The position numbers and the translations under genes are program-made. A stretch of DNA of 64,000 nt. It comes from a virus (taxonomy: Duplodnaviria; Caudoviricetes). The stretch is from positions 256,400 to 320,399 of IMG/VR virus record IMGVR_UViG_3300038679_000051. The stretch is one strand, 5' to 3'. This document shows, one piece after another, positions 2 to 36,297 of the stretch. Every line of letters begins with the position of its first letter. The stretch's first letter is position 1. The notes under the pieces are model-generated. The model was not told the DNA's origin, did no database searches, and saw only the letters and a list, made by a program, of their open reading frames with translations.

Positions 2-1036
2 CATAAGAACGTATCGGATGGCGTGAAGAGAGCATTTGCCTCAGATCCAGATATGAAACAAAAAATGTCTAGTCGATCAAAGAAATTATGGCAGAATGAG
101 GATTATAGAGAGAAGATGGCTGTCGTACAAGCAAATCACCCAGTCATAAGTTCATTGGCACGTAAGTTTTATGCAATGTTGACGCAAATGAATATAAAAT
201 ATGTTGAGGAAGGTCCCGAAACAAAATTTGGTCCATGGACGTTTGATTGTCTAATACCGAAGCAAGGTAATATGCAAAAACATTTATTGGTTGAAGTTCA
301 TGGTGAATATCCACATTCAAGAGAGGATACGAAAATAAGAGATGCAGCAAAGGCGACATATGCGAATAGATATTTGCTTGATTATGAATTAAAAGTCGTG
401 TGGGAGCAATGGTTTCTATTTAGAAATAAAGTAGAGGATATGGTTAGAGAATGGATTGGGATTAAAGAGAATACGACGTTGGTTGATTTCTCACTGAATG
501 ACGTTAAAACTATAGAATCATCTTACAAGGAATGTCTTGATTTTCTTTCTCGACATCATTATCTTTATACTTGTCCACGAGGATCAACATATTATAAGGC
601 AGTCATTAACGATGAGATTGTGGCAGTTTGTTTATATAGTCCATTAATAAGACAAAACATTGGCATTAAAAATTGTCTTGAATTATCGCGTTTCTGCGTC
701 CATCCATCATACCAAAAGAAAAATTTTGCCTCTTGGTTAATTTCGAGGACTAATAGGTTATTGAAGATGGATAAACCGGAGACGGAAACAATAATAACAT
801 ATGCAGATTCTACAGTCGGTCACGTTGGTACGATTTATAAGGCGGCTAATTTTAAATTAGATCATATAGTTGAGCCTGATTATTGGTATGTTGATAAAGA
901 CGGTTATGTCGTACATAAACGGACATTATATGCTCGTGCCTGTAAAATGAGTCAGAAGGAACGTGATTATGCAGAGAACCATGGTTATAAAAAAGTCTGG
1001 GGTGGTGAAAAACGACGTTATTCAATTAATTTGTGA
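2..1036 (+). CDS. Vsr/DUF559-type PD-(D/E)xK endonuclease fused to C-terminal Mom-like GNAT domain (Hef-like homing endonuclease family), 5'-truncated
   Basis: Frame is open from position 2. Motifs FDC..LLVEVHGEYPHS..D..K..VVWE, then FLSRHHY..ELSRFCVHP..NFASWLIS..TYADSTVGHVGTIYKAANF. Paralog of 31457 and 34657. Confidence 0.75.
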   Translation, partial: HKNVSDGVKRAFASDPDMKQKMSSRSKKLWQNEDYREKMAVVQANHPVISSLARKFYAMLTQMNIKYVEEGPETKFGPWTFDCLIPKQGNMQKHLLVEVHGEYPHSREDTKIRDAAKATYANRYLLDYELKVVWEQWFLFRNKVEDMVREWIGIKENTTLVDFSLNDVKTIESSYKECLDFLSRHHYLYTCPRGSTYYKAVINDEIVAVCLYSPLIRQNIGIKNCLELSRFCVHPSYQKKNFASWLISRTNRLLKMDKPETETIITYADSTVGHVGTIYKAANFKLDHIVEPDYWYVDKDGYVVHKRTLYARACKMSQKERDYAENHGYKKVWGGEKRRYSINL

Positions 1037-1329
1037 ATGTATTGCTTATCTACCCGATTATAAAGCTTGAACCATCCAACAATAGAAGACATTTTCGCAT
1101 CATGCCCAAAAAGGAAACGCGTTATTTGATTCAATTCGCGTGCCACGAACCATTCCTGATCGAGTGGCCTTTTAATACTGGTTTTGGCATCCCATGGTAT
1201 ATTTATTGTCACTTCCCATGACCAAGGTTTTCCTTCTGCGTCGTCTGATAATGCACGCAATCCTTCCGACCCTAGTGATCCTTCCGATCCTAGTGATCCA
1301 CGTGATCCGAATTGTTCTTGTTCATTCAT
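1018..1329 (-). CDS. hypothetical protein
   Basis: ATG at 1329 overlaps the stop of the upstream gene (ATGA coupling); short GSLGSE repeat. Confidence 0.55.
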   Translation of the reverse strand: MNEQEQFGSRGSLGSEGSLGSEGLRALSDDAEGKPWSWEVTINIPWDAKTSIKRPLDQEWFVARELNQITRFLFGHDAKMSSIVGWFKLYNRVDKQYIHKLIE

Positions 1330-2030
1330 TCCTTTGATTCTTTGATCCATTTTTCTAATTCATTACACACCATGCTTACACCACCTGAACATTCGTGTAC
1401 TTTGCTGTTACGGTTTTTGGCTATGTTTTTTATGGCATTATAAGTCGAATGATCAATGAAACTAGTGAGAATGAATATTTCGCCCCATGGAAACGGTGAT
1501 GGTATGCCACTTTTATTACCTGAATCATAAAATTTCAGATCGATGTCTGGAAATCGTTGTTTGATTTCGTTTTCTTGATTGTTTTTGACGCCGAAGATGA
1601 TTGCTTTCAGCCTCTTCGTGGCGTATGCTTCTGGGATTTTTTCGCCTAATTTCCCTGCGGCATTAAACATCATTCTAGTGCAGGCTGTCATCATGTCGAT
1701 GTTAGTCATTAAACGGCGGACGAATGCGACGGCCAGTTGTTCTATAGTCATTTCTGCTAATAAATCATCTGTGGTCTTTTGTGGCGGCAATTCTTGTTTT
1801 ATGACGCGGAAACCGTCTTCTAATTCTTTGACATGTTCCTGCCAGCGCTCGACCAACCAACCGATTTGCGAGACGGCAGTTACCTTGCGACGACGGTCTG
1901 CCGGTATTTGTTGTTGTGCGCGTTCGAGCTGTGAATTTAACGTTTCATGTGGATTCTTTTTGTGCATGTTAATGACGATAGATGCGAGTTTGTCTTTTTC
2001 TTCGTCTGACCAAAAGATGCGATCTTTCAT
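1326..2030 (-). CDS. protein with N-terminal HTH-like region and C-terminal DUF2325-like domain
   Basis: C-terminal IFILTSFIDHSTYNAIKNIAK..VHECSGGVSMV resembles DUF2325; WSDEEKDKL is Myb/HTH-like. Confidence 0.55.
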   Translation of the reverse strand: MKDRIFWSDEEKDKLASIVINMHKKNPHETLNSQLERAQQQIPADRRRKVTAVSQIGWLVERWQEHVKELEDGFRVIKQELPPQKTTDDLLAEMTIEQLAVAFVRRLMTNIDMMTACTRMMFNAAGKLGEKIPEAYATKRLKAIIFGVKNNQENEIKQRFPDIDLKFYDSGNKSGIPSPFPWGEIFILTSFIDHSTYNAIKNIAKNRNSKVHECSGGVSMVCNELEKWIKESKE

Positions 2031-2113
2031 TTTTCACCCCTCTTCTCACGGTTTCTGCTGCATTTTTATTGTGGTGGATTCTTTCGTAAATGATTTTGTG
2101 ATGACATTCTCTG

Positions 2114-2120
2114 TAAATAT
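2114..2120 (+). promoter_or_regulatory. putative late promoter (TAAATAT)
   Basis: T4-late-like core 20 nt upstream of the tail tube ATG, followed by a GGAG RBS. Confidence 0.55.
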
Positions 2121-2139
2121 AATTTTGGAGAAAACAAAC

Positions 2140-2655
2140 ATGCCGGGTTTTATGATAGAAGGTAAAGGTCAAGGTCCATCAAATGAATTGGGTGGATCAG
2201 ACGTCCATCGCATCCATAGGTGGTCGTTCGAATGGACGGGTCTTGGTAAAGAGGTTCAGGATTATGCTCTAAATTGCACTAGGCCGACGTTAGATATAGA
2301 CACAGTGACGATCCATCAACGACAAAATGAGGCATATTTGCCTGGTAAACATAGATGGGCACCAATTAGGTTGACGTTATATGTGATGCAGAAGGATACG
2401 CTACAGAAATTGAAGCAATTGCGTGACAAAACAGTTACTACAAATGAAGGAATGAATAATTATGCAATGGAGAGAAATTCCGTATCACAAATGACTTTGC
2501 AGGCATTAAATGGTGAAGGACAGGTTATATATAAATGGATACTCGAAGGATGTTGGATATCTAAAATTGAACATCCTACGTTTAATTATGATAACAGTGA
2601 TCTGGCGACCGTCGAAGTGATGGTGGCATATGATTACGCAAAGGAAGAAGAATAG
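2140..2655 (+). CDS. T4 gp19-like tail tube protein
   Basis: True start 2140 (GGAG RBS). RWSFE..CTRPTL..YLPGKHRWAPIRLT..WILEGCWIS..YDNSDLATVEVMVAYDYA is a tail tube pattern. Confidence 0.85.
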   Translation: MPGFMIEGKGQGPSNELGGSDVHRIHRWSFEWTGLGKEVQDYALNCTRPTLDIDTVTIHQRQNEAYLPGKHRWAPIRLTLYVMQKDTLQKLKQLRDKTVTTNEGMNNYAMERNSVSQMTLQALNGEGQVIYKWILEGCWISKIEHPTFNYDNSDLATVEVMVAYDYAKEEE

Positions 2656-2667
2656 GGGGACTTAGGG

Positions 2668-3150
2668 ATGCCAGGATTTTATGTTGAAAAGGCGAGAAGT
2701 GATGTAGAGAAAACGTTCCTGCAGCATTTCTGGTACGCGGAACAAATTGGTCCATTGAACGTCCAAGGATTGTTGCTACAAGATGTCGGTTTGCCCAACT
2801 TTGAAACTGCGCCACATGAACAGAATGGTGCATCATTAACGTATAAGTTCGCAAATTTCATTAAATATTCTGACGCTACCATTACGTTCTATGATACGTT
2901 GGGCTTGTTCAAAGATTTAGAAGAATGGCGGAAGAAAATATGGGAACCAAACACCGGATTGCAGCCAAAGAAATCTTATGCTAAGGATACCGTCATAGTG
3001 CAAACTGATGGGGCTGGCAACGAAAAACAGAAATACAAATTAGTCAATACATGGCCGTCTAAAATAGATTCTGGACAACTTACATACACCAAAAGTGAGG
3101 CAAAGGTAGTAACTCTCACTCTGGTGTGTGATTATATGACGGTCGAATGA
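2668..3150 (+). CDS. second gp19-like tail tube family protein
   Basis: VGLPNF..KYSDATITFYD..EWRKKI..Y.KD..L.NTWPSKI..LTY..VTLTL.CDY. Confidence 0.8.
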   Translation: MPGFYVEKARSDVEKTFLQHFWYAEQIGPLNVQGLLLQDVGLPNFETAPHEQNGASLTYKFANFIKYSDATITFYDTLGLFKDLEEWRKKIWEPNTGLQPKKSYAKDTVIVQTDGAGNEKQKYKLVNTWPSKIDSGQLTYTKSEAKVVTLTLVCDYMTVE

Positions 3151-3162
3151 TAATTTCATAAG

Positions 3163-3169
3163 TAAATAT
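3163..3169 (+). promoter_or_regulatory. putative late promoter (TAAATAT)
   Basis: Same motif, upstream of the AAGGAG RBS of 3190. Confidence 0.55.
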
Positions 3170-3189
3170 TATCAAAGGAGATCGATCAC

Positions 3190-4182
3190 ATGACCGACAA
3201 AAAAGAAGATAACGTGGCTGACAAGAAGGATAACGTCCATAATGCCGAATCATTTGAATTTGATAAGGTCATTAAGAAAGTAGACGCTACTAATTTAACG
3301 TCCGACAAGTTATTCGAAGAAATATTGAAGTCGGATGATACGTTGCCATGGTGCAATGCTTATCTCCCGTCTCGTGGAATGTTCTATAGTCCAGATAGTC
3401 CTGTGCCGACACCACTCATTCCGGATGGTTTAGTACAAATTCGTCCGATGGGTTTGGATATTGAAAAATTGACGTCGACGCCGAGATATCAGGGTAAATT
3501 CGTAGAATTAATGATCGAAAAATGTGTCAGGTTTCCAGACGGTTTTAACCAAGCTGATTTGTTGGTCGGTGATCGTCTGTTTTTGTTATTCTACATTCGT
3601 GGCATAACCTATGGCAATAAATATCAGTTTGCGCTCAAATGTCCCGGTTGCGACAAAACTGGCATACATGATTATGATTTAAATGAATTGGCAAGAACGA
3701 TTAAGTCGGCAGATCCCGACATCGTTAGTGAACCATTTAAAATCAAATTGCCATATTTGTCTGAGAAATATGGTAAAGACGTTATGGTGAAGGCTAGATT
3801 CATGCGTGGTCGCGATCAGAACGTCATGTCGCAACGAGCATCCTTCAAAAAGAAGGTAATGACGATTAAACCAAAATTGGCGTCAGACAAACCAAATGAC
3901 GAGCAAGTTGACGTGACTGATGAGAGCGTCATTGAAAAGTTCTGTTTGTTGATTACGGAAGTGTTGGGCGTTTCTGATCCATATAAGATCAAGCAATTCG
4001 TAGAGAGCAAACTTCATTCATTAGACGCAGCGGCAATTAACGTTTATCTTGAGGAAAAATGCCCCAGCATGAGTGCGGAAATTCGCGTGACGTGTGGCAA
4101 TTGTGGTCAGGAAGTTGATACTACGCTGCCAATAACCGCTAGATTTTTTCGACCGCAGGTCCCCGGAGGAGATGGAGCATGA
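3190..4182 (+). CDS. T4 gp26-like baseplate hub / tail assembly protein
   Basis: LLVGDRLFLLFYIRGITYG..CPGC..CGNCG..LPITARFFRP pattern, adjacent to the tail tubes. Confidence 0.75.
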   Translation: MTDKKEDNVADKKDNVHNAESFEFDKVIKKVDATNLTSDKLFEEILKSDDTLPWCNAYLPSRGMFYSPDSPVPTPLIPDGLVQIRPMGLDIEKLTSTPRYQGKFVELMIEKCVRFPDGFNQADLLVGDRLFLLFYIRGITYGNKYQFALKCPGCDKTGIHDYDLNELARTIKSADPDIVSEPFKIKLPYLSEKYGKDVMVKARFMRGRDQNVMSQRASFKKKVMTIKPKLASDKPNDEQVDVTDESVIEKFCLLITEVLGVSDPYKIKQFVESKLHSLDAAAINVYLEEKCPSMSAEIRVTCGNCGQEVDTTLPITARFFRPQVPGGDGA

Positions 4183-4345
4183 GTGGGAAAGTCTAATGGA
4201 GCAGACGTTTCTGCTCATATATTATGGACATATGAATTTATCTGATATAAGGAAATTGACGGCTGAAGAACGCATATGGTATATCAAAAGAATAGACAAG
4301 GAGAAACAAGCCGAAGCTAATGCATATAAAGGAAACAAAAAATGA
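4172..4345 (+). CDS. small gp51-like baseplate hub assembly protein (57 aa; not in the ORF track)
   Basis: MEHEWESLMEQTFLLIYYGHMNLSDIRKLTAEERIWYIKRI..; typical partner downstream of gp26-like genes; ATGA overlap with the next gene. Confidence 0.7.
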   Translation: MEHEWESLMEQTFLLIYYGHMNLSDIRKLTAEERIWYIKRIDKEKQAEANAYKGNKK

Positions 4346-5445
4346 GGATAGGCGTTTATGCTATATGTAAGAACGAAGCGTCATTGATTAAAAGGTGTGT
4401 AGACTCAATAAATGAGGCAGATGACATTACGTTTCTAGATACTGGATCAACCGACGACACAAAAGAGAAATTAAAAGAATGTGGTGTGAACGTTTATGAT
4501 GAATTGGCGACGTTTGGAGAACAACCACCTAATCGGATTCCGAGCATTAAATGGCGATATGACGTCGCTCGAAACAGAGCACTACAAATGGTCCCCAAAG
4601 ACATTGACGTGTGTCTAAGCTTAGATGTCGACGAGATATGTGCCCCTGGTTGGCGTAAGGCAATAGAGGAATGTTGGAAACCAGGCACCACCAGGCTTAG
4701 ATATAAATATGTGTGGAGCCATTCGCAGGATGGCTCCCCAGATGTAATGTTTATGTCAGAGAAAATCCATTCCAGATATGATTATGTTTGGTGCCATCCG
4801 GTACATGAGGTGCTACATTATGTTGGACCCGCAGAAGAGAAATTTGCACAATGTGCATGTCGGATCGATCATTGGCCGGTTAAGAAAGATTATAGATCTA
4901 ACTATCTGCCATTAATGGAATTGGGTGTCATGGAACGTCCAGATGACGTCAGATTGGCACATTATTTAGGTAGAGAATATTATTTTCATAAGAAATATGA
5001 TGAGGCAATAATTGAATTAAAGCGGCATTTATCATTACCTAATGCATGGTGGGAGGCAGAACGAGCATCATCGATGAGATACATTGCTCTGTGTCACAAA
5101 GCTAGAAACGAACGGCACGAGGAATGTCGATGGTTGATGAGAGCATGCGCAGAAGCACCAAATGAAAGAGATTCATGGGCTGCATTGTCAAATCATTATA
5201 CTATACACAAAAATTGGTCTGGGGGTTATTTCGCCGCTCTTCAGGCATTAAGCATCAAAGAACGTCCAATGCATTACATAACCAGTGCTCTCGTGTGGGG
5301 GATGTTTGTACATGACTTGGCTGGGACTAATGCTTATTATTTGGATCTAAAAGCGGAATCCAAAAAACATTATGAAGATGCATTAAATTTCGATCCAAAC
5401 AACGAACGACTGAAGAATAATCTGAGAATAATCGGCAAAATATAA
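4342..5445 (+). CDS. glycosyltransferase family 2 with TPR repeats
   Basis: YAICKNE..LDTGSTD..ARNRAL..SLDVDE (DxD)..HPVHE, followed by TPR-like helices. Confidence 0.85.
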   Translation: MRIGVYAICKNEASLIKRCVDSINEADDITFLDTGSTDDTKEKLKECGVNVYDELATFGEQPPNRIPSIKWRYDVARNRALQMVPKDIDVCLSLDVDEICAPGWRKAIEECWKPGTTRLRYKYVWSHSQDGSPDVMFMSEKIHSRYDYVWCHPVHEVLHYVGPAEEKFAQCACRIDHWPVKKDYRSNYLPLMELGVMERPDDVRLAHYLGREYYFHKKYDEAIIELKRHLSLPNAWWEAERASSMRYIALCHKARNERHEECRWLMRACAEAPNERDSWAALSNHYTIHKNWSGGYFAALQALSIKERPMHYITSALVWGMFVHDLAGTNAYYLDLKAESKKHYEDALNFDPNNERLKNNLRIIGKI

Positions 5446-5483
5446 AATATAGCGGAGATTTTCTTTGCTAATGAGGACATGTC

Positions 5484-7814
5484 ATGGCCATTAAATTCTA
5501 TTGTGTAGATGATTCATTACCAAAGAGAAATAGAAGGGGCAATGTCGTATTATTGTCTGACGAGGCAGTGGCTGCGATCATATGTGAATTGTGTGGTGGC
5601 ACTGGTGGCGGTGGCGGGTCGCAGGGACCACAGGGAACGCAGGGCATTAATGGCGTACAAGGTGAAACTGGCTCCCAAGGTCCACAGGGTTCCGGTGCTG
5701 GTTCACAAGGTCCACAGGGCATTCAAGGCCCACAAGGTTTTGGTACACAGGGCGTAAGCGGACCACAAGGTGATCAGGGCATCCAAGGCCCACAAGGTTC
5801 TGGCACACAGGGCGTAAGCGGATCACAAGGCGATGATGGTGCTCAGGGCATTCAGGGTCCACAAGGCTCAGGCGAGGGTGGCACAGGACCACAGGGTCCA
5901 CAAGGCGTTCAAGGCCCACAAGCAGTGGCAAGCGCTGGTGATTCTTGTGGCGTTTATCATTCTAAATCAGTGAACATACCAAACAATGCAGTTACGTATG
6001 TTGACTGGGATTCAGAAGACCATGATGCCAATGACATGCATGATTTGGTCAATCCATCTAGGATAACAATTAAGCATGATGGGTTGTATCATATAATCAA
6101 TAGGATCAAGTTTGATGCAGATGCTAATGGTTTTAGATATGCTGAGATTATATTAAATCGTACGACCGTATTAGCTCGTACAGAAGATATAAATCCATCG
6201 GACATAGAAGGCACTTATTTAGAAGTGGATTCTGGCGTCATATCATTGTCGCTAGATGATTATGTTGAAGTCAGGGTTTATCAAAGTTCTGGCGGTGCAT
6301 TGGGTGTTATGAGTGGCAATGTCGTTGATGGTTATTTCTCGGTGACGGAAATGTTGGGTGTTGGACCACAAGGATCGCAGGGTAGTGGTACTCAAGGCCC
6401 GCAGGGCGTTCAGGGTCCGCAGGGCGTTCAGGGTCCGCAGGGCGTTCAGGGTCCACAAAATACGATAGATCCAGGCGATTCTTGTGGCGTTTATCGTTCA
6501 GCATTAATAAGCACATTGCATAATACGATCACATATGTTGATTGGGATTCAGAAGATCATGATACCAATGACATGCATGATTTGGTCAATCCATCTAGGA
6601 TCACAATTAAACGTGATGGATTATATCACATAACTAATAGAATTAAATTCGCACCAAACACGAATGGTTTTAGATATGCTGAGATTATATTAAATCGTAC
6701 GACCGTATTAGCTCGCACGGAAGACATAAATCCATCGGACATAGAAGATTCTTATTTAGAAGTTGATTCTGGCGTCATATCATTGTCGCTAGATGATTAT
6801 GTTGAAGTCAGGATTTATCAAAGTTCTGGCGGTGCATTGGATGCCGCAGGGAGTAATGTCGTTGATGGTTATTTCTCGGTGACGGAAATGTTGGGTGTCG
6901 GACCACAAGGCCCACAGTGTTCAGGTGGTGGTGTGACTGGTCCACAAGGACCACAGGGTCCAGCCGGTGTCCAATCCACATACACAAATGCCAACCCATC
7001 CGTCATTGAGGTTGGTGGGATTGATGTCGGTACGACATTTTCTAACACCACTTTCGAAGATTTTATGGACATGTTACTTTACCCAGAATTATTCCCTACT
7101 CTAACTGCACCATCTTCTACTTTTACTTCAACAATTACTGGTTATAGAGAAATTGGTGAGGTGATTGCGACCATAACGCTTGCTTCAACATTTAACCGTG
7201 GTAGCATCAATCCCCAATATGAAAGCACTAGTCCCTATCGGAGTGGTGAGGCTAATTCTCATCAGTATCAATATAATAGTGCTGATATCAAAACCAATTT
7301 AGATACGTCTTTGAACATTATTAATCATTTGGTTGTGTCGGGTGCTCAAACATGGCGTGGACGTGTGTCGTATGATGCGGGCGTCCAGCCAAAGGGCAGT
7401 AAGGGGACGAATTATAATTCACCATTAAGTGCAGGTTCGACTTCTTATATAAATCGCATTATCACGGGTGTCTATCCCTATTTTGCGACAACTAGTTTAA
7501 TCACTGTGCTAACGAAACAGACATTGGCTGCCATGAATAGTTCATATGTACAGACTGATATGGTTGCTGAATCTGGTTCAGATAAACAGACGGTTGAATT
7601 TCCGGACGCTTGGAGTGCAATAACTGGCATTCAATTTTATAATACTGTTAGTAGTACCTGGGAATGGATCAATGGTAGTAAAGCTAATAGTCTGATTACT
7701 TTTACAGTAACTGCAACCACTGAGACGATACAGGGCAATGTCATCGACTATCAAAAATTTACTCATAATGGTAGTTTGATTGGTGCTCGACAATTGAGAT
7801 GGTACACTACTTAA
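5484..7814 (+). CDS. collagen-like fibre protein with two C1q/TNF-like beta domains
   Basis: GPQ/GSQ/GTQ triplets; duplicated ~140 aa domain (about 5940-6362 and 6477-6899). Confidence 0.8.
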
Positions 7815-7824
7815 GGGACTATAA

Positions 7825-26641: not shown

Positions 26642-26643
26642 GT

Positions 26644-27060: not shown

Positions 27061-27061
27061 G

Positions 27062-27481
27062 TCATTCTCCTATTTCGATGGGTTTGTGCACTGATGCGGT
27101 CATCTTCAATGGTACATACATTCTATTGATGACGTCGTCATGTATGCGTCGCAATACGCGCAATATGTGGGACTTAGATGAATTTTCAGCGGGTGAATCT
27201 TTTATTGATTTAATTATTTTCATATATTCATTTTCTATTCTGTCATGTATGTCTTCATAATTATACTCTTCGCGTAGATTTGCGCCAATTTCACCATTCA
27301 ATTTGGTTAATATTTCTTTAACGATTGGTGCAACTTCACGATGGATTTTAGCCAGCTCTATTAATTCCTCGCCGAATCTTTTGGCTGATGCCCTATATAA
27401 TTCAAGCGACTCCCTACCTATGCTTATCGGGGCCAATCTTCTTGAAATTGCTTCATTTAGTCTTTTTTCAAAGTTAGTCAT
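27062..27481 (-). CDS. hypothetical protein
   Basis: AGGAG-like spacing; N-terminus MTNFEKRLNEA. Confidence 0.6.
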   Translation of the reverse strand: MTNFEKRLNEAISRRLAPISIGRESLELYRASAKRFGEELIELAKIHREVAPIVKEILTKLNGEIGANLREEYNYEDIHDRIENEYMKIIKSIKDSPAENSSKSHILRVLRRIHDDVINRMYVPLKMTASVHKPIEIGE

Positions 27482-28125
27482 ATCTTATTTTTGATGATGG
27501 TGAATTCGTCATAAATGCATTTTTGTAGACTATACAACGTATTTGGTTTGTCTTCGATTTCATCAAAATTGAAGTCAATGACCCCAGTTCCACTAGATGA
27601 TTCAATTTGGCGTGGTCTACCGTCTATGGTGTCTTGATCGATTTTCTGTTTTGGCGTTAGACCATGTTTTTTTCTAAAATCCTGTTCGACGTTGAGTCTG
27701 CGCATTTCCAACCAAATCAGTTGCAATTCATCTTCAGATATGGTCTCAAGTTCTTTCATACGTTGTCTTATTGCATCAACCCGTGCTGAATGAACGTACT
27801 TTTGTGAATCAAGCAATTCTTTGTTGATGAATTTCGACCAATGTTCGACAATCTCTTTCCCTGCCGGTGGTTTAAATTTAAACAATGACGACGTCTTTCG
27901 AAGACGAATGTCATTTCTTTCTCGCATGTGTTCAAAATTGATTATTGACCAGAGGGCGGTGACTGCAATCCTGGCTTCCGCCTCATCTACATCGCCTTTT
28001 TGCCATGATGCAATCGTTTTGGCATTGAAATCAATTAAATATTCATTTATCGGATCTAATTTATGGCACGTCCTAATTTCGGCGATCTCAGCCATTAAAA
28101 TTGGATAGTCATTCAAATCAAGCAT
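27478..28125 (-). CDS. hypothetical protein
   Basis: AGGAG RBS; coupled to the downstream gene. Confidence 0.6.
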   Translation of the reverse strand: MLDLNDYPILMAEIAEIRTCHKLDPINEYLIDFNAKTIASWQKGDVDEAEARIAVTALWSIINFEHMRERNDIRLRKTSSLFKFKPPAGKEIVEHWSKFINKELLDSQKYVHSARVDAIRQRMKELETISEDELQLIWLEMRRLNVEQDFRKKHGLTPKQKIDQDTIDGRPRQIESSSGTGVIDFNFDEIEDKPNTLYSLQKCIYDEFTIIKNKI

Positions 28126-28160
28126 GAGCCAATCTCCTGCTGCGTTTTATCGATTGGCTG

Positions 28161-28167
28161 ATGTTTG
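28161..28167 (-). promoter_or_regulatory. putative late promoter variant (CAAACAT)
   Basis: Upstream of 28125. Confidence 0.4.
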
Positions 28168-28173
28168 TCAATG

Positions 28174-28848
28174 TTAATTTTTGTTTTTTAGTGCGTTTCT
28201 GATGGCATTCCCAAGCTGCATTTTAGCCAGTCCGGCGTGTCGTTTGGCGATTTCGTCAGCGTTGGTTACACCCAATTCTTTAGCCCATTTATGAATTGCC
28301 GCCAAATCCATTCCCTTTAATTTGAGAGATAATTCGTCTTGCACTTTTTTCGGTTTGACTTTCTGCAATACCTGAGGTGCTTCTTTCGAAACAATGACGT
28401 TTTCGGGCATTGGTTTAGTCTCGGTGATGATTTCCTTATTTTGAGTCACTTTCTTCTCCTTCTCTTTTTTGGCGCTGGTGATTGTGCTGACTTGGCACAA
28501 TGCAATTGCTCTCTCACGTTCAATCCTTACTTTTGTCGGTTCTTTCCCACCATCGCTCTTCCAGAGATGTTCAGCATCACGTGCCATTAACGTATATGCT
28601 ATGGCCATCTCTAAATGTTTCCTATTTGACGACAATGGCTTCCCATTTAAATACTTCTCATATAATAAGGGTAAGGCTTCCATTTTCAACAATCGCAATT
28701 CATGGAGTACTTTCTGTATTCTGTTCATGTCGGTTATTGGCTGATCAAACACTGCAAACTTGTCCATTACTTGTGTCCTTTCAGAAATCGTATCGTTCAT
28801 TCTATCTCTTTCTTTTCGTCTTTGGGTCTCTTTTGGTATCATCTTCAT
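28174..28848 (-). CDS. hypothetical basic protein
   Basis: Long K/E-rich ORF, divergent from 28906. Confidence 0.6.
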   Translation of the reverse strand: MKMIPKETQRRKERDRMNDTISERTQVMDKFAVFDQPITDMNRIQKVLHELRLLKMEALPLLYEKYLNGKPLSSNRKHLEMAIAYTLMARDAEHLWKSDGGKEPTKVRIERERAIALCQVSTITSAKKEKEKKVTQNKEIITETKPMPENVIVSKEAPQVLQKVKPKKVQDELSLKLKGMDLAAIHKWAKELGVTNADEIAKRHAGLAKMQLGNAIRNALKNKN

Positions 28849-28905
28849 GTAAAAATACGTTCATCATTTGTTCCGTAAAATATATAACAAAGGAGGAACA
28901 AAATC

Positions 28906-29151
28906 ATGGCGCAATTAATCCCGACGTGGCTCATTCGTAACGTTAGTAACGGTAGTCTCACGGTGAAAGCAAATCCCGATTTGACATCACCAGTCTACCC
29001 TTCTTCGGCAAGTCTGGTAACGATCAAACCACAGACCAATGTGGAAATTGAACGAAGCCGTCTTGAAGAGGAGCAGATTCTCAATCTGCGACGAAAAAAT
29101 TTAATCACGATGACGCCGCTCGTCAAATCAATCGAGTCTGGCACTGAATAA
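28906..29151 (+). CDS. small hypothetical protein
   Basis: Strong AAGGAGG RBS; TAATG coupling to the next gene. Confidence 0.7.
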   Translation: MAQLIPTWLIRNVSNGSLTVKANPDLTSPVYPSSASLVTIKPQTNVEIERSRLEEEQILNLRRKNLITMTPLVKSIESGTE

Positions 29152-30341
29152 TGAACCTGTCGGACAGGCTTCATCATTTATTTGAGGTGGTTGACCCAAA
29201 CGACATCAATAATCGCATTGATGTATTGTTAAAGGCCATAGATCAATCCAAACCCAATTACATAAAGCATATCGATAGCGTAGTTGGGACAATGAATGAT
29301 TATTTGCGTGGGAAGGTCGATAGTGCGCCTGAAACCATAAAATCCATAAAATCTTCACCAGAGGCTCCGAAAGACGACCCAAAACGTAGAAAAATCAATA
29401 AGGATAAGGTTGCAGCGATTTTATTACGTACTGGTGAAGCTCCGGATATGACAACTGCGATCAGCCAAGCCGAAAAAATGAGTAATTGGACGGATGCACA
29501 ATGGGACGCATGGCATCAACAAGAATCAACATGTCGTCACGTCATTCCGTTGCTTGAAGCACGTGGATTGATTACGCTTAATGCAATCGCGATGCGTGCC
29601 CGCATTGCAGCGAATGACGTTGCAAACTCAATAAAGGCTGGCGAATTATTTCATAAACTTAAATCATTGTTGTCTGAGGGGTATTACATCGATGGTGGCA
29701 GGACGTTGTTAGAAGACATACACATTGATGATTTATATCAATCCATATCGAATTTAGATTTAGCGACGGCTTATGAAAAGTTCAAAGATGAATTGATTTA
29801 TATGAAAAAGAAATGGTCTAACGTTGACGACATAAACGTATTGGCCGATAAATTAAGAGAAGTTCGGATGCAATCGCCAATCAACAAACGAGTGGCATAC
29901 GATCTCGTTGATAAACTCAGGAAACAATATGTGGATTTGACGTTGCATTTCAAAATAATAGAATCGTTATCTAAGAAGATCGTTAAATGGTTGAAAATCA
30001 ATAACGCGGACGCTCGTGCTACGGCATCCCAAGTAGAGGCCATTATCAATAAGATCAACAAGACCGAGAAGAAGACGGAAGAACCAGAAACGCCAGAAAC
30101 GCCTGCAAAGGCAGAAACACCAGCGCCGAAGGATCGTGAAGTTGAATTGGCCAATAAACTTCGACAATTTGGCGTCAAGCAGGATCAAACATTCAGACAA
30201 TCTGCCATAAAACAGGCGATTGCAGCTGGTGCAAAAACTGATGATGAGATAATCGATAAAGCGATTGATCTATATAGAGGACACAAAATTAGGATTGACG
30301 ATCCGCACGCTGAACTCAGAAAGAAACTACGCTCATATTAA
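29151..30341 (+). CDS. helical hypothetical protein, possible head-internal protein; C-terminal RuvA-C/UBA-like three-helix bundle
   Basis: Several L-x-E sites (LFE, LLE, LSE); C-terminal ELANKLRQFG..AIKQAIAAG..DEIIDKAI. Confidence 0.5.
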   Translation: MNLSDRLHHLFEVVDPNDINNRIDVLLKAIDQSKPNYIKHIDSVVGTMNDYLRGKVDSAPETIKSIKSSPEAPKDDPKRRKINKDKVAAILLRTGEAPDMTTAISQAEKMSNWTDAQWDAWHQQESTCRHVIPLLEARGLITLNAIAMRARIAANDVANSIKAGELFHKLKSLLSEGYYIDGGRTLLEDIHIDDLYQSISNLDLATAYEKFKDELIYMKKKWSNVDDINVLADKLREVRMQSPINKRVAYDLVDKLRKQYVDLTLHFKIIESLSKKIVKWLKINNADARATASQVEAIINKINKTEKKTEEPETPETPAKAETPAPKDREVELANKLRQFGVKQDQTFRQSAIKQAIAAGAKTDDEIIDKAIDLYRGHKIRIDDPHAELRKKLRSY

Positions 30342-31183
30342 AAGGTTATTGATTTGACTTTGGCAACGTCCATGGCCGTGTCTATTTCACCATGTCTTTT
30401 GACCATCCTTTTCAATTCCTTCATGAATTTTATGTAATGATAACGTTCCAGCAATTTGAAGGTTACGTTATCCGGCAACGAGTTCTTAGATCCATATTCC
30501 CGAATCTCTTCTGGCGACATGTCTCTTTCAAACGCATTGTCACGTAGGTCGCTGAGATGGTTGTATTGTGATATGAGTACTTCTACCGAATCGTTGATTT
30601 CTTTCAATTTTTCGTTTATTCTGTTTTCAAGATCGGCAATGTCTTCGTCTTTCAATCTATTGAAAATGTCATAATCGATGATGTCCCGTTTCAATTCAGC
30701 TTTAGTCAAATCAATTTTTTCAACTTCATCATGGAATCGTTGCATGTAATCATCCAAATCAATTTCGATGTCATACGGTCCTAAAATCATTTCATCGTTG
30801 CGCAAATCATATAAACCATCGGCACGAGATCGGTCATATTCACCGCGCACCACATAGAATTGCAATGGATGATCGGTCCCTATAGCTGACGTTTCCTTGT
30901 CATGATATTCTTTTAGATAATTTTTAATTCTCTCATAGTCGACATCAGACATTTCCGGTGCCGTTTCCATTAGGATGTCTATGTCGGTGTCGTCCAACCA
31001 TTGATAACTTAATATGCTGCCTTTGACATATATGTTCCCGATTGACAATCCAGTTTCTCTGCTTATGTGGTCAATTATATCTAGAATCTGTTTACGTATC
31101 TCAGGCTTCATGACATGCATGTCATTGAATACCATTGGGTCTAGCGAACTTCTGGTTGGATCAATTATTGATTCAGTCAGCAT
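30338..31183 (-). CDS. nucleotidyltransferase-fold protein
   Basis: IYVKGSILSYQW..DTDIDIL (GS..DxD)..PLQFYV, followed by coiled coil. Confidence 0.7.
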   Translation of the reverse strand: MLTESIIDPTRSSLDPMVFNDMHVMKPEIRKQILDIIDHISRETGLSIGNIYVKGSILSYQWLDDTDIDILMETAPEMSDVDYERIKNYLKEYHDKETSAIGTDHPLQFYVVRGEYDRSRADGLYDLRNDEMILGPYDIEIDLDDYMQRFHDEVEKIDLTKAELKRDIIDYDIFNRLKDEDIADLENRINEKLKEINDSVEVLISQYNHLSDLRDNAFERDMSPEEIREYGSKNSLPDNVTFKLLERYHYIKFMKELKRMVKRHGEIDTAMDVAKVKSITF

Positions 31184-31201
31184 TTGTTTCTCCCATATGA
31201 T

Positions 31202-31208
31202 ATGTTTG
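31202..31208 (-). promoter_or_regulatory. putative late promoter variant (CAAACAT)
   Basis: GACAAACATATCAT upstream of the GGGAGA RBS of 31183. Confidence 0.45.
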
Positions 31209-31263
31209 TCTCACACAAAAATACGTCTACGATGGCAATGGTCTAATTTTAAGGAGAATCGCG

Positions 31264-31413
31264 ATGAAACTTGGTCGTAACGAAGTTGGAATCGTCTTGT
31301 TTGTAGCGAATGGAAAGAAAGCAATGACGATAACCGCAAAACGACCAATTAAAAATCCTAAAGTGGAGATGCAATCGCGAGAAGAGAAATTGAAGAATCT
31401 ACAAAATAAATAA
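31264..31413 (+). CDS. small basic protein (49 aa; not in the ORF track)
   Basis: AAGGAG RBS; MKLGRNEVGIVLFVANGKKAMTITAKRPIKNPKVEMQSREEKLKNLQNK. Confidence 0.55.
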   Translation: MKLGRNEVGIVLFVANGKKAMTITAKRPIKNPKVEMQSREEKLKNLQNK

Positions 31414-31456
31414 AGAAGTGATTTGAGTCCTCCCATTTGATGTGGTGGAAACGAAC

Positions 31457-32830
31457 ATGGATTATGTCGATCGTCTTAAGTCACTTTCACATCAAGTGGA
31501 ATCTGACGTAAGCGGTGTCACAATGGACGACGGAGTGAAAGTCACCGTTAAATGTTCATGTGGTCAGAGAAATGAAATTGGCGCAAGATCATTGATCAGA
31601 CGGTGGGCACACAAAGGGCAATATCTCTGTAAATCATGTTCAGTTAAGACATACGTTAACGATCCAAATAGAATTAAACGAGCGGTACAATCGTTTAAAG
31701 AATCAATGACTGATGAACGAAAAAAGAAAATGTCCGACGGTGTGTGTAATGCATGGAAAAATGATGATTATCGTGAGAAGATCTCAAAAGCGACGACACG
31801 AGACAACATAACTAATCCGTTGAAGAAAATTGCCAGAGAAAAAGCATTAAAGGCATTATTAGTTAAAAGACCAAACCATATGGCTGAGATACGACAATTG
31901 AATCAAAAAACAAGCAAAATACAGAAAATGTTATATGAAATGTTAGATGAACTTGGTGTCCAACATTTTAAAGATGATTCTAATGAATGTCGTATTGGTT
32001 ATTTCGTATTTGATTGTAGAATAGACCCACATGACAGAGTAAAGCTGAGAAAGTCGTTATTAATAGAAGTACAAGGAGATTATTGGCATTCTTTACCAAG
32101 AGTAGCATGTAAAGATGCATCAAAATCAACGTATATCAGTAGATATTTTGATCAATTTGATCTTAAATATATATGGGAACACGAATTTTACTCGAAAGGC
32201 AGAGTGATGTCATTGTTGCGGCATTGGTTGGGAATTGACGAATTTAATCAGATCAATTTCGAATTTAATGACATATTAATGAAAGAAATTTCAATTGATG
32301 ATGCTGAGAATTTCATATCGAAATTTCATTATGCTGGTAAACTTGGTAGGGGTGGCACTAAATTTGGATGTTATTTAAACGATAAATTGATTGCAGTGTG
32401 TGTTTTCTCACAATTACTCAGAAAAGAGACTGCAGAATTACAGGGACATAAGCAGAATGAAATGCTTGAACTTTCCCGCTTTTGTATTCATCCATCATAT
32501 CAGAAGAAGAACTTTGCTTCATGGTTTATTTCTAGGGCTACGAAGAAAATCATAGAAATTAGACCAGAAATCAAAAGGCTTGTCTCATTTTCTGATTCGA
32601 CATATAATCATGTTGGGACAATTTATAAAGCTTCAAATTGGATGTTTGATGGATTAGTGAAACCTAGTTATTGGTATGTTGATAAAGATGGATATGTTGC
32701 TCATAAGAAATCAATTTGGGATCATGCAAGCAAGATGAATATGAGCGAATCAGAATATTGTATTAAATTTGGATTTGTTAAAGTATGTGGCAAAGAAAAG
32801 AATAGATATATTTATGTAATCAAACCATAA
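31457..32830 (+). CDS. Vsr/DUF559 endonuclease-Mom-like GNAT fusion with N-terminal zinc finger (Hef-like)
   Basis: CSCG..CKSC; FDC..LLIEVQGDYWHS..D.SK..IWEHE; FHYAG..ELSRFC..SFSDSTYNHVGTIYKASNW. Confidence 0.8.
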   Translation: MDYVDRLKSLSHQVESDVSGVTMDDGVKVTVKCSCGQRNEIGARSLIRRWAHKGQYLCKSCSVKTYVNDPNRIKRAVQSFKESMTDERKKKMSDGVCNAWKNDDYREKISKATTRDNITNPLKKIAREKALKALLVKRPNHMAEIRQLNQKTSKIQKMLYEMLDELGVQHFKDDSNECRIGYFVFDCRIDPHDRVKLRKSLLIEVQGDYWHSLPRVACKDASKSTYISRYFDQFDLKYIWEHEFYSKGRVMSLLRHWLGIDEFNQINFEFNDILMKEISIDDAENFISKFHYAGKLGRGGTKFGCYLNDKLIAVCVFSQLLRKETAELQGHKQNEMLELSRFCIHPSYQKKNFASWFISRATKKIIEIRPEIKRLVSFSDSTYNHVGTIYKASNWMFDGLVKPSYWYVDKDGYVAHKKSIWDHASKMNMSESEYCIKFGFVKVCGKEKNRYIYVIKP

Positions 32831-32862
32831 AGTAGGACCGACAATAGCTTTCAAGGAGAAAG

Positions 32863-34614
32863 ATGATGCCAACAATTAATCCAAATTTGATTCCGACCAT
32901 TGAACCCGGTCAGATTTTTAGTAGATTTACTTCAGATACTACGCTCAACGTTCGGTGGCTTGAGGCAGTTGACCCGGTATATTTCGACATATACAATCGA
33001 CCAATTGCCGATACGGTAGTGAGACAATTGATATTGGCCAAAGCGTTGGACATTCTTAGCGTTCGTCTTGCTTTTATGGCTCATTTTCCATTTCTAATCG
33101 TTCCAACGATATCTGGGTCGACCATCCATGAATTGCCCTCCAATTGGATTTGGGACATGCATGCTTCGATCCCTGCCAAATGGAAAATGTTGCGATTGGC
33201 AAAAATCAAACGAATTAGTGGACACAACCCAAGCGGGACTGATGCGACATATACCGGCAAAATAGAATTCATCTTTACTGCATCTACGTCTACGTCGGTA
33301 GTGGAAACGGCGTTGTTTAAAGTCACTTATCAAATCGACAGCAATCTGACTTATCAAATCGTAGAAATTACCAATGTGATTGCTGGCGAAGAACCAATAG
33401 TCATTGATCCCGCTGAAGCGGACACTCTGGCTGGATATGTGATGTTCAGGACGTTGGATCTTACCAGCACAGCAGTAACTAATTTCTTCGATTTCATAGC
33501 ACCGCCAGTCGGTTCGGAAGGCACTGAATACCCAGTGCCTACGACGTATGAATTGGATGACTCACCGGCGGGCACTGACGTTAGCAGTGATTTCGGTCCG
33601 ACGGCCATCTCACACGGTACCGGTCTGTTGGTTGCATCTGCCTACAACATGATTCCAGCGCTCGATTCAGATGCCAACGTTTGGTTGAGCGCATTCAATT
33701 ATCCATTCGGATTGGTTGCATCACGGCAATCTACGTCACCAATATTGGTGACCATACCGAAGGCATTGTTTGCAGAATTTGACATAGCAGTTCCTGCCGG
33801 TGACGGCCCATTGGCTGATACGACCGGTCTAATGTTCCCAGTCTGGATTTCTCGAATCGAACGGGTGTCGTCTGGCAAATGTACGGCTTATTTTGCTACG
33901 CACAACGTTACCGATGACATGCCGTCCACGCAGCCAGTTGAATTTGCTACGCTCACATTAGAGAGCACGTTCCTCTCCGGTCGGATAATTCCCATAGTGC
34001 CACTTGACGATTTGTTCGAAAAATCTGGATCTGATTCATTATTGTGGCAACAACATTTTGGTCGGGGACATGTCGTATTGTCAGCGAAATGGGCAGTTGG
34101 AAATACCGAAATTTCTGATTTCTTTGCTGCATTGGACACGATCCTTGACGCACCAGCAGACTTGTTGTTTGACCAAAGTGCGACCAGAGTTGGATCTTTT
34201 GGTCTATCACGCGTCCCAAAATATGTCCCAACAATCGGCCAAGCACAAGCATTGCGTGGAAGTGCCGCACGTAGAGAAGTACCAGTGAATCCTGATGATA
34301 ACAATCGTTACGTCACTGAACAAGATCAGGGTCTTGGCGATAAATATGATTTTCAAACTTGCGAGAATCTAGACGTTGCCAAGCGGACGAATGCCGACAT
34401 CGATCGTTATGGTTATAAAGGTGGATTGGTCAGTCGATTCGTTACACTGATCGTAAATGAATGCGGCACCAGTCACAATTATGACGATGACATCTTACCA
34501 AGATTGAAGTGCTTATTGGGTAGAGACGTGATATTCGGCGACAGATGGTATGACGGAACTCGCGTTAAGACATACGTCATCGACGCCAATAATCAGGGCG
34601 TTTGGATAGGCTAA
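32863..34614 (+). CDS. putative virion structural protein
   Basis: 583 aa, S/T/P/D-rich and beta-like; GGAG RBS; no recognised family. Confidence 0.55.
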   Translation: MMPTINPNLIPTIEPGQIFSRFTSDTTLNVRWLEAVDPVYFDIYNRPIADTVVRQLILAKALDILSVRLAFMAHFPFLIVPTISGSTIHELPSNWIWDMHASIPAKWKMLRLAKIKRISGHNPSGTDATYTGKIEFIFTASTSTSVVETALFKVTYQIDSNLTYQIVEITNVIAGEEPIVIDPAEADTLAGYVMFRTLDLTSTAVTNFFDFIAPPVGSEGTEYPVPTTYELDDSPAGTDVSSDFGPTAISHGTGLLVASAYNMIPALDSDANVWLSAFNYPFGLVASRQSTSPILVTIPKALFAEFDIAVPAGDGPLADTTGLMFPVWISRIERVSSGKCTAYFATHNVTDDMPSTQPVEFATLTLESTFLSGRIIPIVPLDDLFEKSGSDSLLWQQHFGRGHVVLSAKWAVGNTEISDFFAALDTILDAPADLLFDQSATRVGSFGLSRVPKYVPTIGQAQALRGSAARREVPVNPDDNNRYVTEQDQGLGDKYDFQTCENLDVAKRTNADIDRYGYKGGLVSRFVTLIVNECGTSHNYDDDILPRLKCLLGRDVIFGDRWYDGTRVKTYVIDANNQGVWIG

Positions 34615-34656
34615 CGACAGTATTTCTTTCTTTTTCCTTCATTTGAGGACGAACCA

Positions 34657-36297
34657 ATGAGTCCAGACCAACCATCAACAATGAGAAAACATGACGAAAA
34701 AGGACCCAATGTTCAGCGACATCTTGTAACTAATTTAAAGATGACCGATGGATTGTTGAAGAAGATCATCGATGAATATGTTAATAAAGATGTCTCGATT
34801 ACTGATTTGTCAAGGAAATACGACGTTGATAAGAAGACGATTTCCAGATGGTTCCGTAAATCAGACGTGGCATTGAAGCCAAATAAGAAGCATGAATCAA
34901 TTAAAGTAGAGCGGGTGAAATGGCATACAAAAGAGGAAAGAGATGAAGAAATATTGAGGCAATACAATGGAACTGATCGTGGGTGTAACGTAATAGCAAG
35001 ATCATTGGGCATCGGTAAGAGGACCGTATTTCGCGTCTTAGACGATCACAACGTTGCAAGACACAAGAAGCACCAAACGGTGATTGATTTAGAAGCCTTA
35101 AAAAAGGAATATGAGGACGGTTGTGGCGTCGTTGAATTGGCAAGGAAGTACGATACGACGTCACGAACCATACACGATAGATTGACTAAAATTGGGTGCA
35201 TTTTGCGGACGTCGGCTGATACGAACAGTGCCATACCGATCAATCTTCAAGACGACGTAATTAAATGGTATGTTGATGAAGATCACAGCACATATGACGT
35301 TGCGAAGAGGCTCAAGAATTACAACGTTGATGTCCATCCAAACAGCATACAAAAGTTTATTAATCGCAGAGGATTGATGCGGCATGGACAGGAGATGAGA
35401 AATCACGTTGCTCGTAAACAGAAAAACAAGAATCACAGGACGAAAGTTGAAGCGATCGTCGAACAAGCAATCAAAGAGTTAGAAATTAAATATGATTGGC
35501 AACATCCCATCGACGGTTGGACATATGATTTTAGTTGTGGTGACGTGCTGATAGAAGCAAACGGTGATTATTGGCATTCATTGCCTGGTCGAAGACAGAG
35601 GGATGCAAAGAAATTCAACGTTGCGCGTGAACATAATAAGAAGGTGTGTTATGTGTGGGAACACGAAGCGAATGCAAATGTGGAATTGATTAAGAATAGA
35701 TTAAAACATGCATTGACTGATAAACCAACGTTTGATTTTAGGGCGTGTACCGTTAAAGCAGTTGATTTTAAAGACGTTGAGGCATTTCTTGATCGACATC
35801 ATTATCAAGGTTCAGGGCGCAACGGCACTACTTGCGTTGGATGTTATAACGGCGATGAACTTGTTGCCGTCGTTACGTTCGGCAGCGTCGTCAGATTGGA
35901 AATGGCAGAAAAACAAAGCATGGCGACCAATGAGATTAGGGAATTGATGAGACTTTGTATTAGACCGGACGTACAAAGCAGGAATTTTGCCACATGGTTG
36001 TTGGCTAGATCACGCAGAGTCCTCCGAGAAATGGAACCAAACGTTGAATTATTGATATCGTTTGCCGATCCAAATTTTGGCCATGTCGGCACGATCTATA
36101 AGGCCGACAATTGGCGTTTTGATGGTGAAACGTCATCGAGTTATTGGTACGTTGATCCTCGTTCCACAATCATCCATAAGAAGACCGTGTGGAATAGGGC
36201 GATGAGGAGCGGCATTACGGAGAAAGAACAAATAAAACGTGATCATCTGATTAAGGTCGAGGCAAGACCCAAATATCGATTCATTCGTAAACCCTAA
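34657..36297 (+). CDS. Vsr/DUF559 endonuclease-Mom-like GNAT fusion with N-terminal HTH array (Hef-like)
   Basis: About four HTH repeats (e.g. SITDLSRKYDVDKKTISRWF); YDF..LIEANGDYWHS..D..K..VWEHE; HHYQG..ELMRLC..SFADP..HVGTIYKADNW. Confidence 0.8.
   Translation: MSPDQPSTMRKHDEKGPNVQRHLVTNLKMTDGLLKKIIDEYVNKDVSITDLSRKYDVDKKTISRWFRKSDVALKPNKKHESIKVERVKWHTKEERDEEILRQYNGTDRGCNVIARSLGIGKRTVFRVLDDHNVARHKKHQTVIDLEALKKEYEDGCGVVELARKYDTTSRTIHDRLTKIGCILRTSADTNSAIPINLQDDVIKWYVDEDHSTYDVAKRLKNYNVDVHPNSIQKFINRRGLMRHGQEMRNHVARKQKNKNHRTKVEAIVEQAIKELEIKYDWQHPIDGWTYDFSCGDVLIEANGDYWHSLPGRRQRDAKKFNVAREHNKKVCYVWEHEANANVELIKNRLKHALTDKPTFDFRACTVKAVDFKDVEAFLDRHHYQGSGRNGTTCVGCYNGDELVAVVTFGSVVRLEMAEKQSMATNEIRELMRLCIRPDVQSRNFATWLLARSRRVLREMEPNVELLISFADPNFGHVGTIYKADNWRFDGETSSSYWYVDPRSTIIHKKTVWNRAMRSGITEKEQIKRDHLIKVEARPKYRFIRKP

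Follow-up and report, generated by a model that had tools for sequence, protein, structure and literature searches.

The DNA discussed here is the final 64 kb of a phage record (Caudoviricetes; IMG/VR IMGVR_UViG_3300038679_000051, positions 256,400 to 320,399) that has terminal repeats and measures 320,399 bp. This stretch of 64,000 nucleotides (nt) is called the window below, and coordinates refer to it unless the genome is named. Our subject is a set of genes in which an N-terminal DNA-binding region, a Vsr-like nuclease domain and a C-terminal GNAT domain of the Mom family are joined in one protein. Three of them lie in the window, all on the plus strand. Copy 1 is represented by the C-terminal 344 amino acids (aa) of a 595-aa Hef-type nuclease-Mom protein (2..1036); its full gene occupies genome positions 255648-257435 and starts 751 nt before the window edge. 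Copy 2 (457 aa) lies at 31457..32830, reading from the ATG at 31457, with an upstream GTG at 31442 also open, and copy 3 (546 aa) lies at 34657..36297. A fourth full gene, copy 4 (444 aa), is found upstream of the window on the minus strand (genome 239676-241010) and has two helix-turn-helix (HTH) modules. Pfam Mom matches in the whole genome number five, and we refer to the fifth as the stub or remnant. It is a 96-aa open reading frame (ORF) with 34% GC at genome ~248349-248639, directly upstream of a 957-aa tail-sheath gene, and is the decayed C-terminal end of a further nuclease-Mom gene: in tblastn searches with the full copies, the Mom domain is detected there for its final 106-140 residues alone, and no part of the nuclease is. 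A megablast search with 10 kb of the phage's sequence had no match among GenBank phages. An identical 17.7-kb stretch is present in another sample, and no variation was seen.

A first-pass annotation, made from the letters of the window alone, had described three paralogous ORFs sharing a nuclease, a GNAT domain and a set of tail motifs. All three ORFs are present at the positions given above, and they are paralogs, with homology far above chance: copies 1 and 2 share 36% of their residues over 394 aa (E 6e-82), copies 2 and 3 share 33% over 333 aa (E 1e-61), and the tail motifs YWYVD, HK and K.R(Y/F) are common to the three. The count of three, while correct for what it named, falls short of the five Mom matches in the genome, and one of the three is cut by the window edge. 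The same annotation had given each copy a different, swapped N-terminus. This holds for copy 3, which does carry an HTH array, but not for copies 1 and 2, which are of the same type. In full-length copy 1, a CxxC...CxxC zinc ribbon opens the protein and leads into an extended series of W-x-(D/N)-x-x-Y-R-x-K helical repeats. Copy 2 follows the same plan with fewer of these basic repeats (31457..31903, plus strand), its zinc ribbon having beta hairpins at residues 28-42 and a CKSC at 58, and the two N-termini align weakly (E 3e-4). Copies 3 and 4 have HTH arrays, recognized by HTH profile matches, the array of copy 3 extending over 34657..35430 on the plus strand. There are only two N-terminal types among the copies, zinc ribbon plus repeats and HTH arrays, and both belong to the modular NUMOD/HTH kind of DNA-binding region seen in EDxHD enzymes. 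None of the copies matched the NUMOD families of Pfam, and the likeness of the repeats to NUMOD3 was judged by eye alone. The PADLOC family 'HEase' matches residues 89-348 of copy 3, covering HTH array and nuclease (E 3.5e-14), and apart from it no defence-system family in PADLOC was matched.

The middle domain spans residues 298-414 of copy 1 (140..490), 150-268 of copy 2 (31904..32260) and 259-359 of copy 3 (35431..35733), in each case on the plus strand. Pfam recognizes these domains poorly, through weak matches to DUF559, MTES_1575 and Vsr (in copy 3 to DUF559 and MTES_1575), and NCBIfam gave weak sub-threshold matches to the copies with nothing above threshold. A profile built from 28 family members and searched against the PDB matched the homing endonuclease I-Bth0305I in its catalytic domain (3r3p, E 4.7e-12), followed by 3hrl, a DUF559 protein (3e-5); its match to Vsr was weak. 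Structure prediction agreed. With a separate model of the nuclease domain (predicted local distance difference test, pLDDT, 92.4), the top Foldseek match was again 3r3p (probability 1.00, template modelling score 0.64/0.77), and 3hrl and Vsr (1vsr, 1cw0) were listed as well. The separate model was needed for this match, as fold searches with the full 457-aa model of copy 2 list GNATs only and no nuclease fold. The Vsr/DUF559-type nuclease named by the first-pass annotation was thereby borne out.

The catalytic residues tell the same story. D186, E204, Q206, H211 and D220 of copy 2 align with D196, E206, N208, H213 and D222 of I-Bth0305I (D51, H64, H69 and D97 in Vsr); K223 and E241 are further marked residues of the copy 2 domain. 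D186, E204, H211, D220 and E241 (copy 2 numbering) occur in all four copies, and each is kept in 120-123 of 123 relatives, while the position of Q206 holds Q in 102, N in 19 and H in 2. A degenerate nuclease was considered for copy 1, where peripheral motifs are altered (YWH to YPH, WEHE to WEQW), and was set aside, the core D, E, H, D and E being intact. Both the Vsr-like PD-(D/E)xK fold and the composite catalytic motif of the EDxHD family are therefore found here, and 'homing endonuclease' families of PHROG match the copies over their full length. The middle domain is a member of the EDxHD homing-endonuclease family, in which Hef has been placed (Taylor et al., 2011, PMC3239194). We regard the classification of the copies as Hef-type homing endonuclease genes as secure.

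The nuclease is followed by the GNAT domain (residues 415-595 of copy 1, 491..1033; 269-457 of copy 2, 32261..32827; 360-546 of copy 3, 35734..36294; all on the plus strand). That this domain is Mom-like had been proposed at first reading, and the proposal was upheld by family and by fold. The Pfam Mom family (PF25680), whose cut-off is 27.1 bits, matches the four full copies at 67.9-104.2 bits and the remnant at 53.3. When copy 2 was modelled with AlphaFold (pLDDT 89), the best Foldseek match of the model was Mu Mom (8bv8, E 5e-12); by VIA-align the model and 8bv8 superpose with a Z of 17.0 and a root-mean-square deviation of 2.8 A over 159 residues, the next GNAT scoring 14.8. The alignment joins residues 270-457 of the model to 37-223 of the chain and so spans the extra C-terminal region of Mom, where invariant residues also fall. 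The fold is thus that of a GNAT closest to Mom, and the overall match takes in the C-terminal region, where the segment opposite Mu residues 175-209 may form the same HTH-like insertion.

Work on Mu Mom has shown R111, S124, D149 and R151 to be essential and H58, Y59 and Y159 to be important (Silva et al., 2026, PMC13219725). These positions were mapped through the 8bv8 alignment together with an alignment to Mu Mom itself, and their conservation was followed over the 123 relatives. H58/Y59 correspond to H291/Y292 of copy 2, R111 to R341, D149 to D380 and Y159 to Y390, all of which, like the equivalent of N121, are kept in 123 of 123. S124 corresponds to S355 of copy 2 and is Thr in copies 3 and 4 (Ser in 111 relatives, Thr in 12). 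Other marked residues of the copy 2 domain are H385, H416 and K417. The essential R111, S124 (as Ser or Thr) and D149 are hence present in a family whose mean column identity, in a smaller alignment of 42 proteins, is 28%. Judged from these sequences, the C-terminal part of the copies genuinely belongs to the Mom family and is most likely active.

The chemistry of Mom makes a further line of evidence available, since what the enzyme adds to N6 of adenine in double-stranded DNA is glycine, which it takes from Gly-tRNA(Gly) (Silva et al., 2026, PMC13219725). The first-pass annotation had named a lack of acetyl-CoA binding as grounds for giving up its reading; because Mom uses Gly-tRNA(Gly) and not acetyl-CoA, such a lack refutes nothing. 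In the studied phage, a tRNA-Gly look-alike lies at genome 252216-252291, 4.1 kb before the window. It has Gly identity pairs and folds into a cloverleaf with G1-C72, C2-G71 and G3-C70, U73, an encoded CCA, the anticodon ACC and a bulged T stem. ARAGORN makes no call on it, and Rfam gives none at E<=0.1 on 18 kb; on its own it reaches 18.3 bits in the Rfam tRNA model, whose cut-off is 29. Neither blastn and nhmmer searches of the relatives L008, L009, L010 and L012 nor two exact-pattern scans of viral contigs found a match to it.

We then looked for tRNAs in 79 IMG/VR loci (759 kb) that encode relatives of the fusion proteins. With default settings ARAGORN called five tRNAs, four of which were tRNA-Gly, and all four stood at the 3' end of a fusion gene. 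A covariance model built from the look-alike of the studied phage and the RNA in locus L026 gave full-length matches in L026, L076, L023, the L069 group and L098, and it was by this model only that relatives of the look-alike were found. Relative to the stop of the fusion gene, the RNAs are located at -7 nt in L026, +709 in L076, +32 in L023, +24 in the L069 group and -50 in L098, so that a tRNA-Gly or tRNA-Gly-like gene abuts or overlaps the 3' end of the fusion gene in four of five lineages. The five linked fusion proteins are no more than 50% identical to each other. In the alignment of the RNAs, which was fitted to the covariance model and is biased in its favour to that extent, 99.3% of cells are paired and 17 of 21 pairs change on both sides; none of 500 shuffles reaches the real value, and slid controls are far lower. 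Since Mom uses Gly-tRNA and tRNA-Gly genes adjoin the fusions, the link argues that the fused Mom domains are working glycyl-transferases. That the domain in the copies is active and depends on Gly-tRNA we hold to be probable, with some room for error.

Adjacency to tRNA-Gly is not general for stand-alone Mom genes. The regions retrieved around six of these genes, those of Mu, HGTV-1, WIL-1, Thornton, Zartrosa and LP-114, contained no tRNA-Gly. Microbacterium phage Blett does have an annotated tRNA-Gly(ccc) on the opposite strand, within 33 nt after its Mom-like gene. In the same phage this stand-alone gene, annotated as an 'acetyltransferase' (L017:277-1010), is preceded by a ParB-like nuclease gene.

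Mobility of the genes is indicated by their sites. The first-pass annotation had taken the genes for selfish elements and had named fixed, syntenic occurrence in all relatives as what would speak against this; the sites on L008, L009, L012 and the P0011 contig are instead empty or differently filled. Copy 1 lies among three tail-tube paralogs, with paralog 1 just before the window (genome 255062-255601) and paralogs 2 and 3 on its right flank (2140..3150, plus strand). In L008 the three paralogs are contiguous and there is no copy 1. In the studied phage, tube 1 is split from tube 2 by a 2.9-kb block, absent in both L008 and L009, that contains copy 1 and two minus-strand ORFs of 110 and 234 aa with no known family (1018..2030). 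The 110-aa ORF carries a Gly/Ser-rich repeat, GSxGSLGSEGSLGSEG.

Copies 2 and 3 enclose a 583-aa gene of the structural region (32863..34614, plus strand), and the left-flank gene of copy 2 is read from the minus strand (30338..31183). Homologs of the left-flank gene (55% identical) and of the 583-aa gene (65%) are adjacent in relative L012, which has neither copy 2 nor copy 3 there. The 583-aa gene, likely the neighbouring target gene of the two copies, is highly conserved, and more than 400 length-conserved homologs about 50% identical to it occur on contigs of jumbo phages. The protein matched no family in Pfam or PHROG, and a single-protein search of viral contigs returned no relatives, these having come from the protein database; it may be this clade's major capsid protein. 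At the site of copy 4, a 49%-identical homolog occupies the same intergenic position in L008 in opposite orientation, which suggests an independent insertion or an inversion of the cassette, and L009 has none. The tail-sheath gene gives a further example: L009 and the P0011 contig have a copy directly after it, where the studied phage has none and instead keeps its stub before the sheath.

Phylogeny and composition point the same way. In a tree of the nuclease plus Mom region, the four copies fall in four clades and need four origins, of which well-supported branches force at least three, and each copy is nearer to proteins of other phages than to the other copies. Copies 1, 2, 4 and the stub have 33-35% GC, within the lowest 1-3% of 1.4-kb windows of a genome averaging 41.5%. 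Copy 3, at 41.9%, is typical of the genome; in the family tree its branch is the longest. Around copies 2 and 3, scans for repeats, promoters and terminators yielded only the similarity between the paralogs and sites at chance level. Presence and absence at given sites, four clades, low GC (in copies 1, 2, 4 and the remnant) and the decay of one copy all support selfish elements, and the genes turn over long-term beside conserved structural genes, as expected of free-standing homing genes.

Fusions of this type have been described before. Mom-REase (restriction endonuclease) fusions of jumbo phages were proposed to restrict others with the nuclease while momylation protects self, and phage PA5oct was credited with five 'momylating enzymes' (Iyer et al., 2021, PMC7824862). 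The architecture and the notion of cutting rivals while marking self are thus already published, and the idea of the first-pass annotation, which described a single-chain restriction-modification or phage-exclusion system, is essentially the same one. The copies share the architecture and proposed logic of those fusions. That account does not link the fusions to Hef or homing, assumes an acyl-CoA donor and leaves tRNA-Gly genes unmentioned. As for single-chain restriction-modification enzymes, both domains are present and intact-looking in the copies; the modifying domain is not a methyltransferase.

The comparison with Hef, drawn at first reading, proved apt. The Hef of phage U5 and the Hef-like enzymes of T4-like, ViI-like (LIMEstone1 F-LimIII/VII/VIII/X) and Campylobacter phages are free-standing like the copies, and their genes likewise sit beside conserved structural and replication genes, many per genome. 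The layout is shared as well, consisting of a zinc ribbon or HTH N-terminus, a Vsr-like nuclease and a homologous GNAT-like C-terminal domain, though the Hef-like proteins are only ~25% identical to the copies. By tblastn, 'Hef-like homing endonucleases' were found at 9-11 places per genome in the Campylobacter phages CPX and NCTC12673, and these proteins align with the copies across nuclease and C-terminal domain. In CPX, two adjacent 'Hef-like' genes stand next to the tail-sheath gene (L007:60-3349). I-Bth0305I, the EDxHD prototype, has the same nuclease fold and catalytic residues and a modular N-terminus of HTH/NUMOD type. Unlike the copies, it is intron-encoded, has ~266 aa and lacks a Mom domain; its intron interrupts the target, and no other self-protection is therefore needed. 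A cultured relative of the fusions is available in Escherichia phage ph0011 (OP557969.1), a 348-kb jumbo phage of E. coli, in which a 532-aa nuclease-Mom 'hypothetical protein' (L021:2149-3747) is encoded immediately after the annotated major capsid gene and which may serve as a laboratory model.

Mu Mom, the best structural match, is by contrast a stand-alone dimer of 231-aa subunits, while in the copies the Mom domain forms the tail of a nuclease. Another comparison is offered by the ssrA islands of Dehalococcoides, where a tRNA-Gly-like 'pseudo-tRNA' is embedded in mom homologs (McMurdie et al., 2011, PMC3146451). As in five lineages of the fusion family, a mobile element there physically links a gene of the mom family with one resembling tRNA-Gly. 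These islands are bacterial, however, their Mom homolog stands alone, and it is the 5' end of the gene that carries the RNA, whereas the fusion family belongs to phages, is joined to a nuclease and has the RNA at the 3' end. The studied phage departs further from them, with its look-alike kilobases away from the fusion genes.

Taken together, the best overall explanation is that the copies are free-standing homing genes of the Hef/EDxHD type whose Mom domain is active and marks self, a reading to which we give somewhat better than an even chance. We infer cleavage, homing, chemistry and protection for the copies as follows. The genes would have settled as homing genes beside conserved structural genes, namely the capsid-region gene, the tail sheath and the tail tube. 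The modular N-terminus, whether zinc ribbon with basic repeats or HTH array, would read a long DNA site in the conserved neighbour gene, and the Vsr-like domain would nick or cut near it. In a mixed infection, a relative without the nuclease would repair the break from the carrier and so copy the nuclease gene. By analogy with Mu, the Mom domain would take glycine from Gly-tRNA(Gly), probably including the look-alike of the phage, and place it on N6 of adenine in double-stranded DNA. Since the Mom domain is tethered to the same DNA-reading module, it would most likely mark the carrier genome at or near the nuclease's own sites, and a marked carrier may be refractory to its own nuclease and possibly to host restriction. 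What the first-pass annotation suggested, a GNAT domain that labels the phage's own DNA and so shields it, gains strength from the invariant Mom residues and the adjacent tRNA-Gly genes, and self-protection by the Mom domain is plausible. A local form of it, immunity at the cut sites, is a reasoned guess that we would rate as rather less than an even bet. Tentative, too, is the view that the nuclease-Mom gene, together in some lineages with a private non-translational tRNA-Gly, makes up a self-contained 'cut and immunise' homing cassette, in which one DNA-reading module would aim the nuclease at element-free genomes and the Gly-tRNA-dependent adenine modification at the carrier's own copy of the target.

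Several observations weigh against this reading. Of the residues essential in Mu, R151 is replaced by T, S or N in the copies, and W48, a residue of the Mom dimer, is replaced by D; the position of Mu R154 is His. A dead Mom domain was considered for the missing R151 and set aside: five stand-alone Mom-like phage proteins (HGTV-1, WIL-1, Thornton, Blett and S-SSM7) lack it too and share the His at position 154 with the copies. R151 therefore looks like a peculiarity of Mu and not a family-defining feature. In the Hef-like proteins of Campylobacter phages, the C-terminal domains do not reach the Pfam Mom threshold and have other residues at Y59, at H154 and, in one of two proteins, at D149, so the domain may be non-catalytic in part of the wider Hef family. 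The copies keep the Mom positions that are altered in the Campylobacter proteins, and of those examined only R151 and W48 of Mu are changed. As for the RNA link, there is no tRNA-like gene beside copies 2 and 3, the covariance model finding none in the window, and most of the 79 loci are without such an RNA within 5 kb. The relatives compared at the insertion sites are distant, with 45-65% protein identity in flanking genes, and presence and absence among them consequently shows turnover and not recent homing. Finally, the U5 Hef is reported to have cleaved, in vitro, both DNA without the gene and the DNA of the phage that carries it, which fits poorly with simple self-immunity.

One alternative is a fixed, phage-wide weapon of restriction-modification or exclusion type, whose nucleases would attack host DNA or that of superinfecting phages broadly while Mom marks the genome globally, guarding it against host restriction and against the phage's own nucleases, and whose genes would not be homing elements. 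It is the published prediction for the Mom-REase fusions of jumbo phages (PMC7824862), and it accommodates both the intact catalytic residues of Mom and a phage-encoded tRNA-Gly look-alike, which could serve genome-wide modification. Such genome-wide anti-restriction marking is also the main alternative to local self-immunity. What makes the weapon unlikely as the whole explanation is the number and behaviour of the genes. Four copies with different sequence-reading N-termini and a decayed remnant exceed the need of a global function, every site is empty or differently filled in relatives, none of the copies has its closest relative among the others, and GC is atypically low in three. Moreover, the nearest relative of the nuclease is a proven homing endonuclease, and the annotations of the family read 'homing endonuclease'. 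The two readings do overlap, in that a homing element can exclude rivals too.

Two other alternatives concern the GNAT domain. It could be non-catalytic, retained for its fold as a DNA clamp or a base-flipping reader that aids the nuclease; the Campylobacter proteins, which keep the domain despite failing Pfam Mom and differing at Y59, H154 and (one of two) D149, would be understandable on this basis, as would the changes at R151 and W48 in the copies. Yet the other active-site residues of Mom stay invariant in 123 proteins that otherwise retain little identity, R151 is missing from stand-alone Mom-like proteins as well, and a tRNA-Gly or tRNA-Gly-like gene beside fusions in five lineages is hard to explain if Gly-tRNA is not used. 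We consider a purely structural domain improbable. Or the domain could act on something other than DNA, on a protein or on an aminoacyl-tRNA as the toxins of TacT/AtaT type do, with the nuclease a separate matter. The substrate is unreadable from the fold alone, and GNATs that handle aminoacyl-tRNA have many kinds of target (Silva et al., 2026, PMC13219725). Mom itself, however, is the closest structure and sequence family, above all other GNATs; the alignment to 8bv8 runs through Mom's extra C-terminal region and its invariant residues; and the domain is always fused to modules that bind and cut DNA. A non-DNA target accordingly seems to us the least probable of these readings, and quite unlikely.

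The interpretation offered by the first-pass annotation is, as a whole, partly supported. The use of Gly-tRNA by Mom, the invariant active site in this large jumbo-phage clade and the travelling tRNA-Gly genes together make the role of the Mom part testable. A homing cassette of the kind outlined would, if real, solve the problem of self-cleavage in free-standing homing nucleases, whose insertion leaves the target site intact; it would also be without precedent, both as a homing endonuclease that brings its own antidote chemistry and as a case of momylation directed to particular sites. A local protective mark, if confirmed, would explain how free-standing homing nucleases spare their own genome and would provide an enzyme from nature able to write a bulky adenine modification at selected positions in DNA. 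Otherwise, what this jumbo phage offers is simply one more set of Hef-like selfish genes, well annotated.

Two observations concern neighbouring genes. In relative L009 (20561-21545), a precomputed Pfam table lists a large terminase-like gene with intein and LAGLIDADG domains, another sign of the heavy load of selfish elements in this phage group. In the window, copy 3 is followed (36297-38937) by a gamma-glutamyl cyclotransferase-like gene, the start of which overlaps the stop of copy 3 by one base, then by a radical SAM gene on the minus strand and by a spore-photoproduct-lyase-like gene, the last so named from a Pfam SPL match in the gene table of the identical contig L011.

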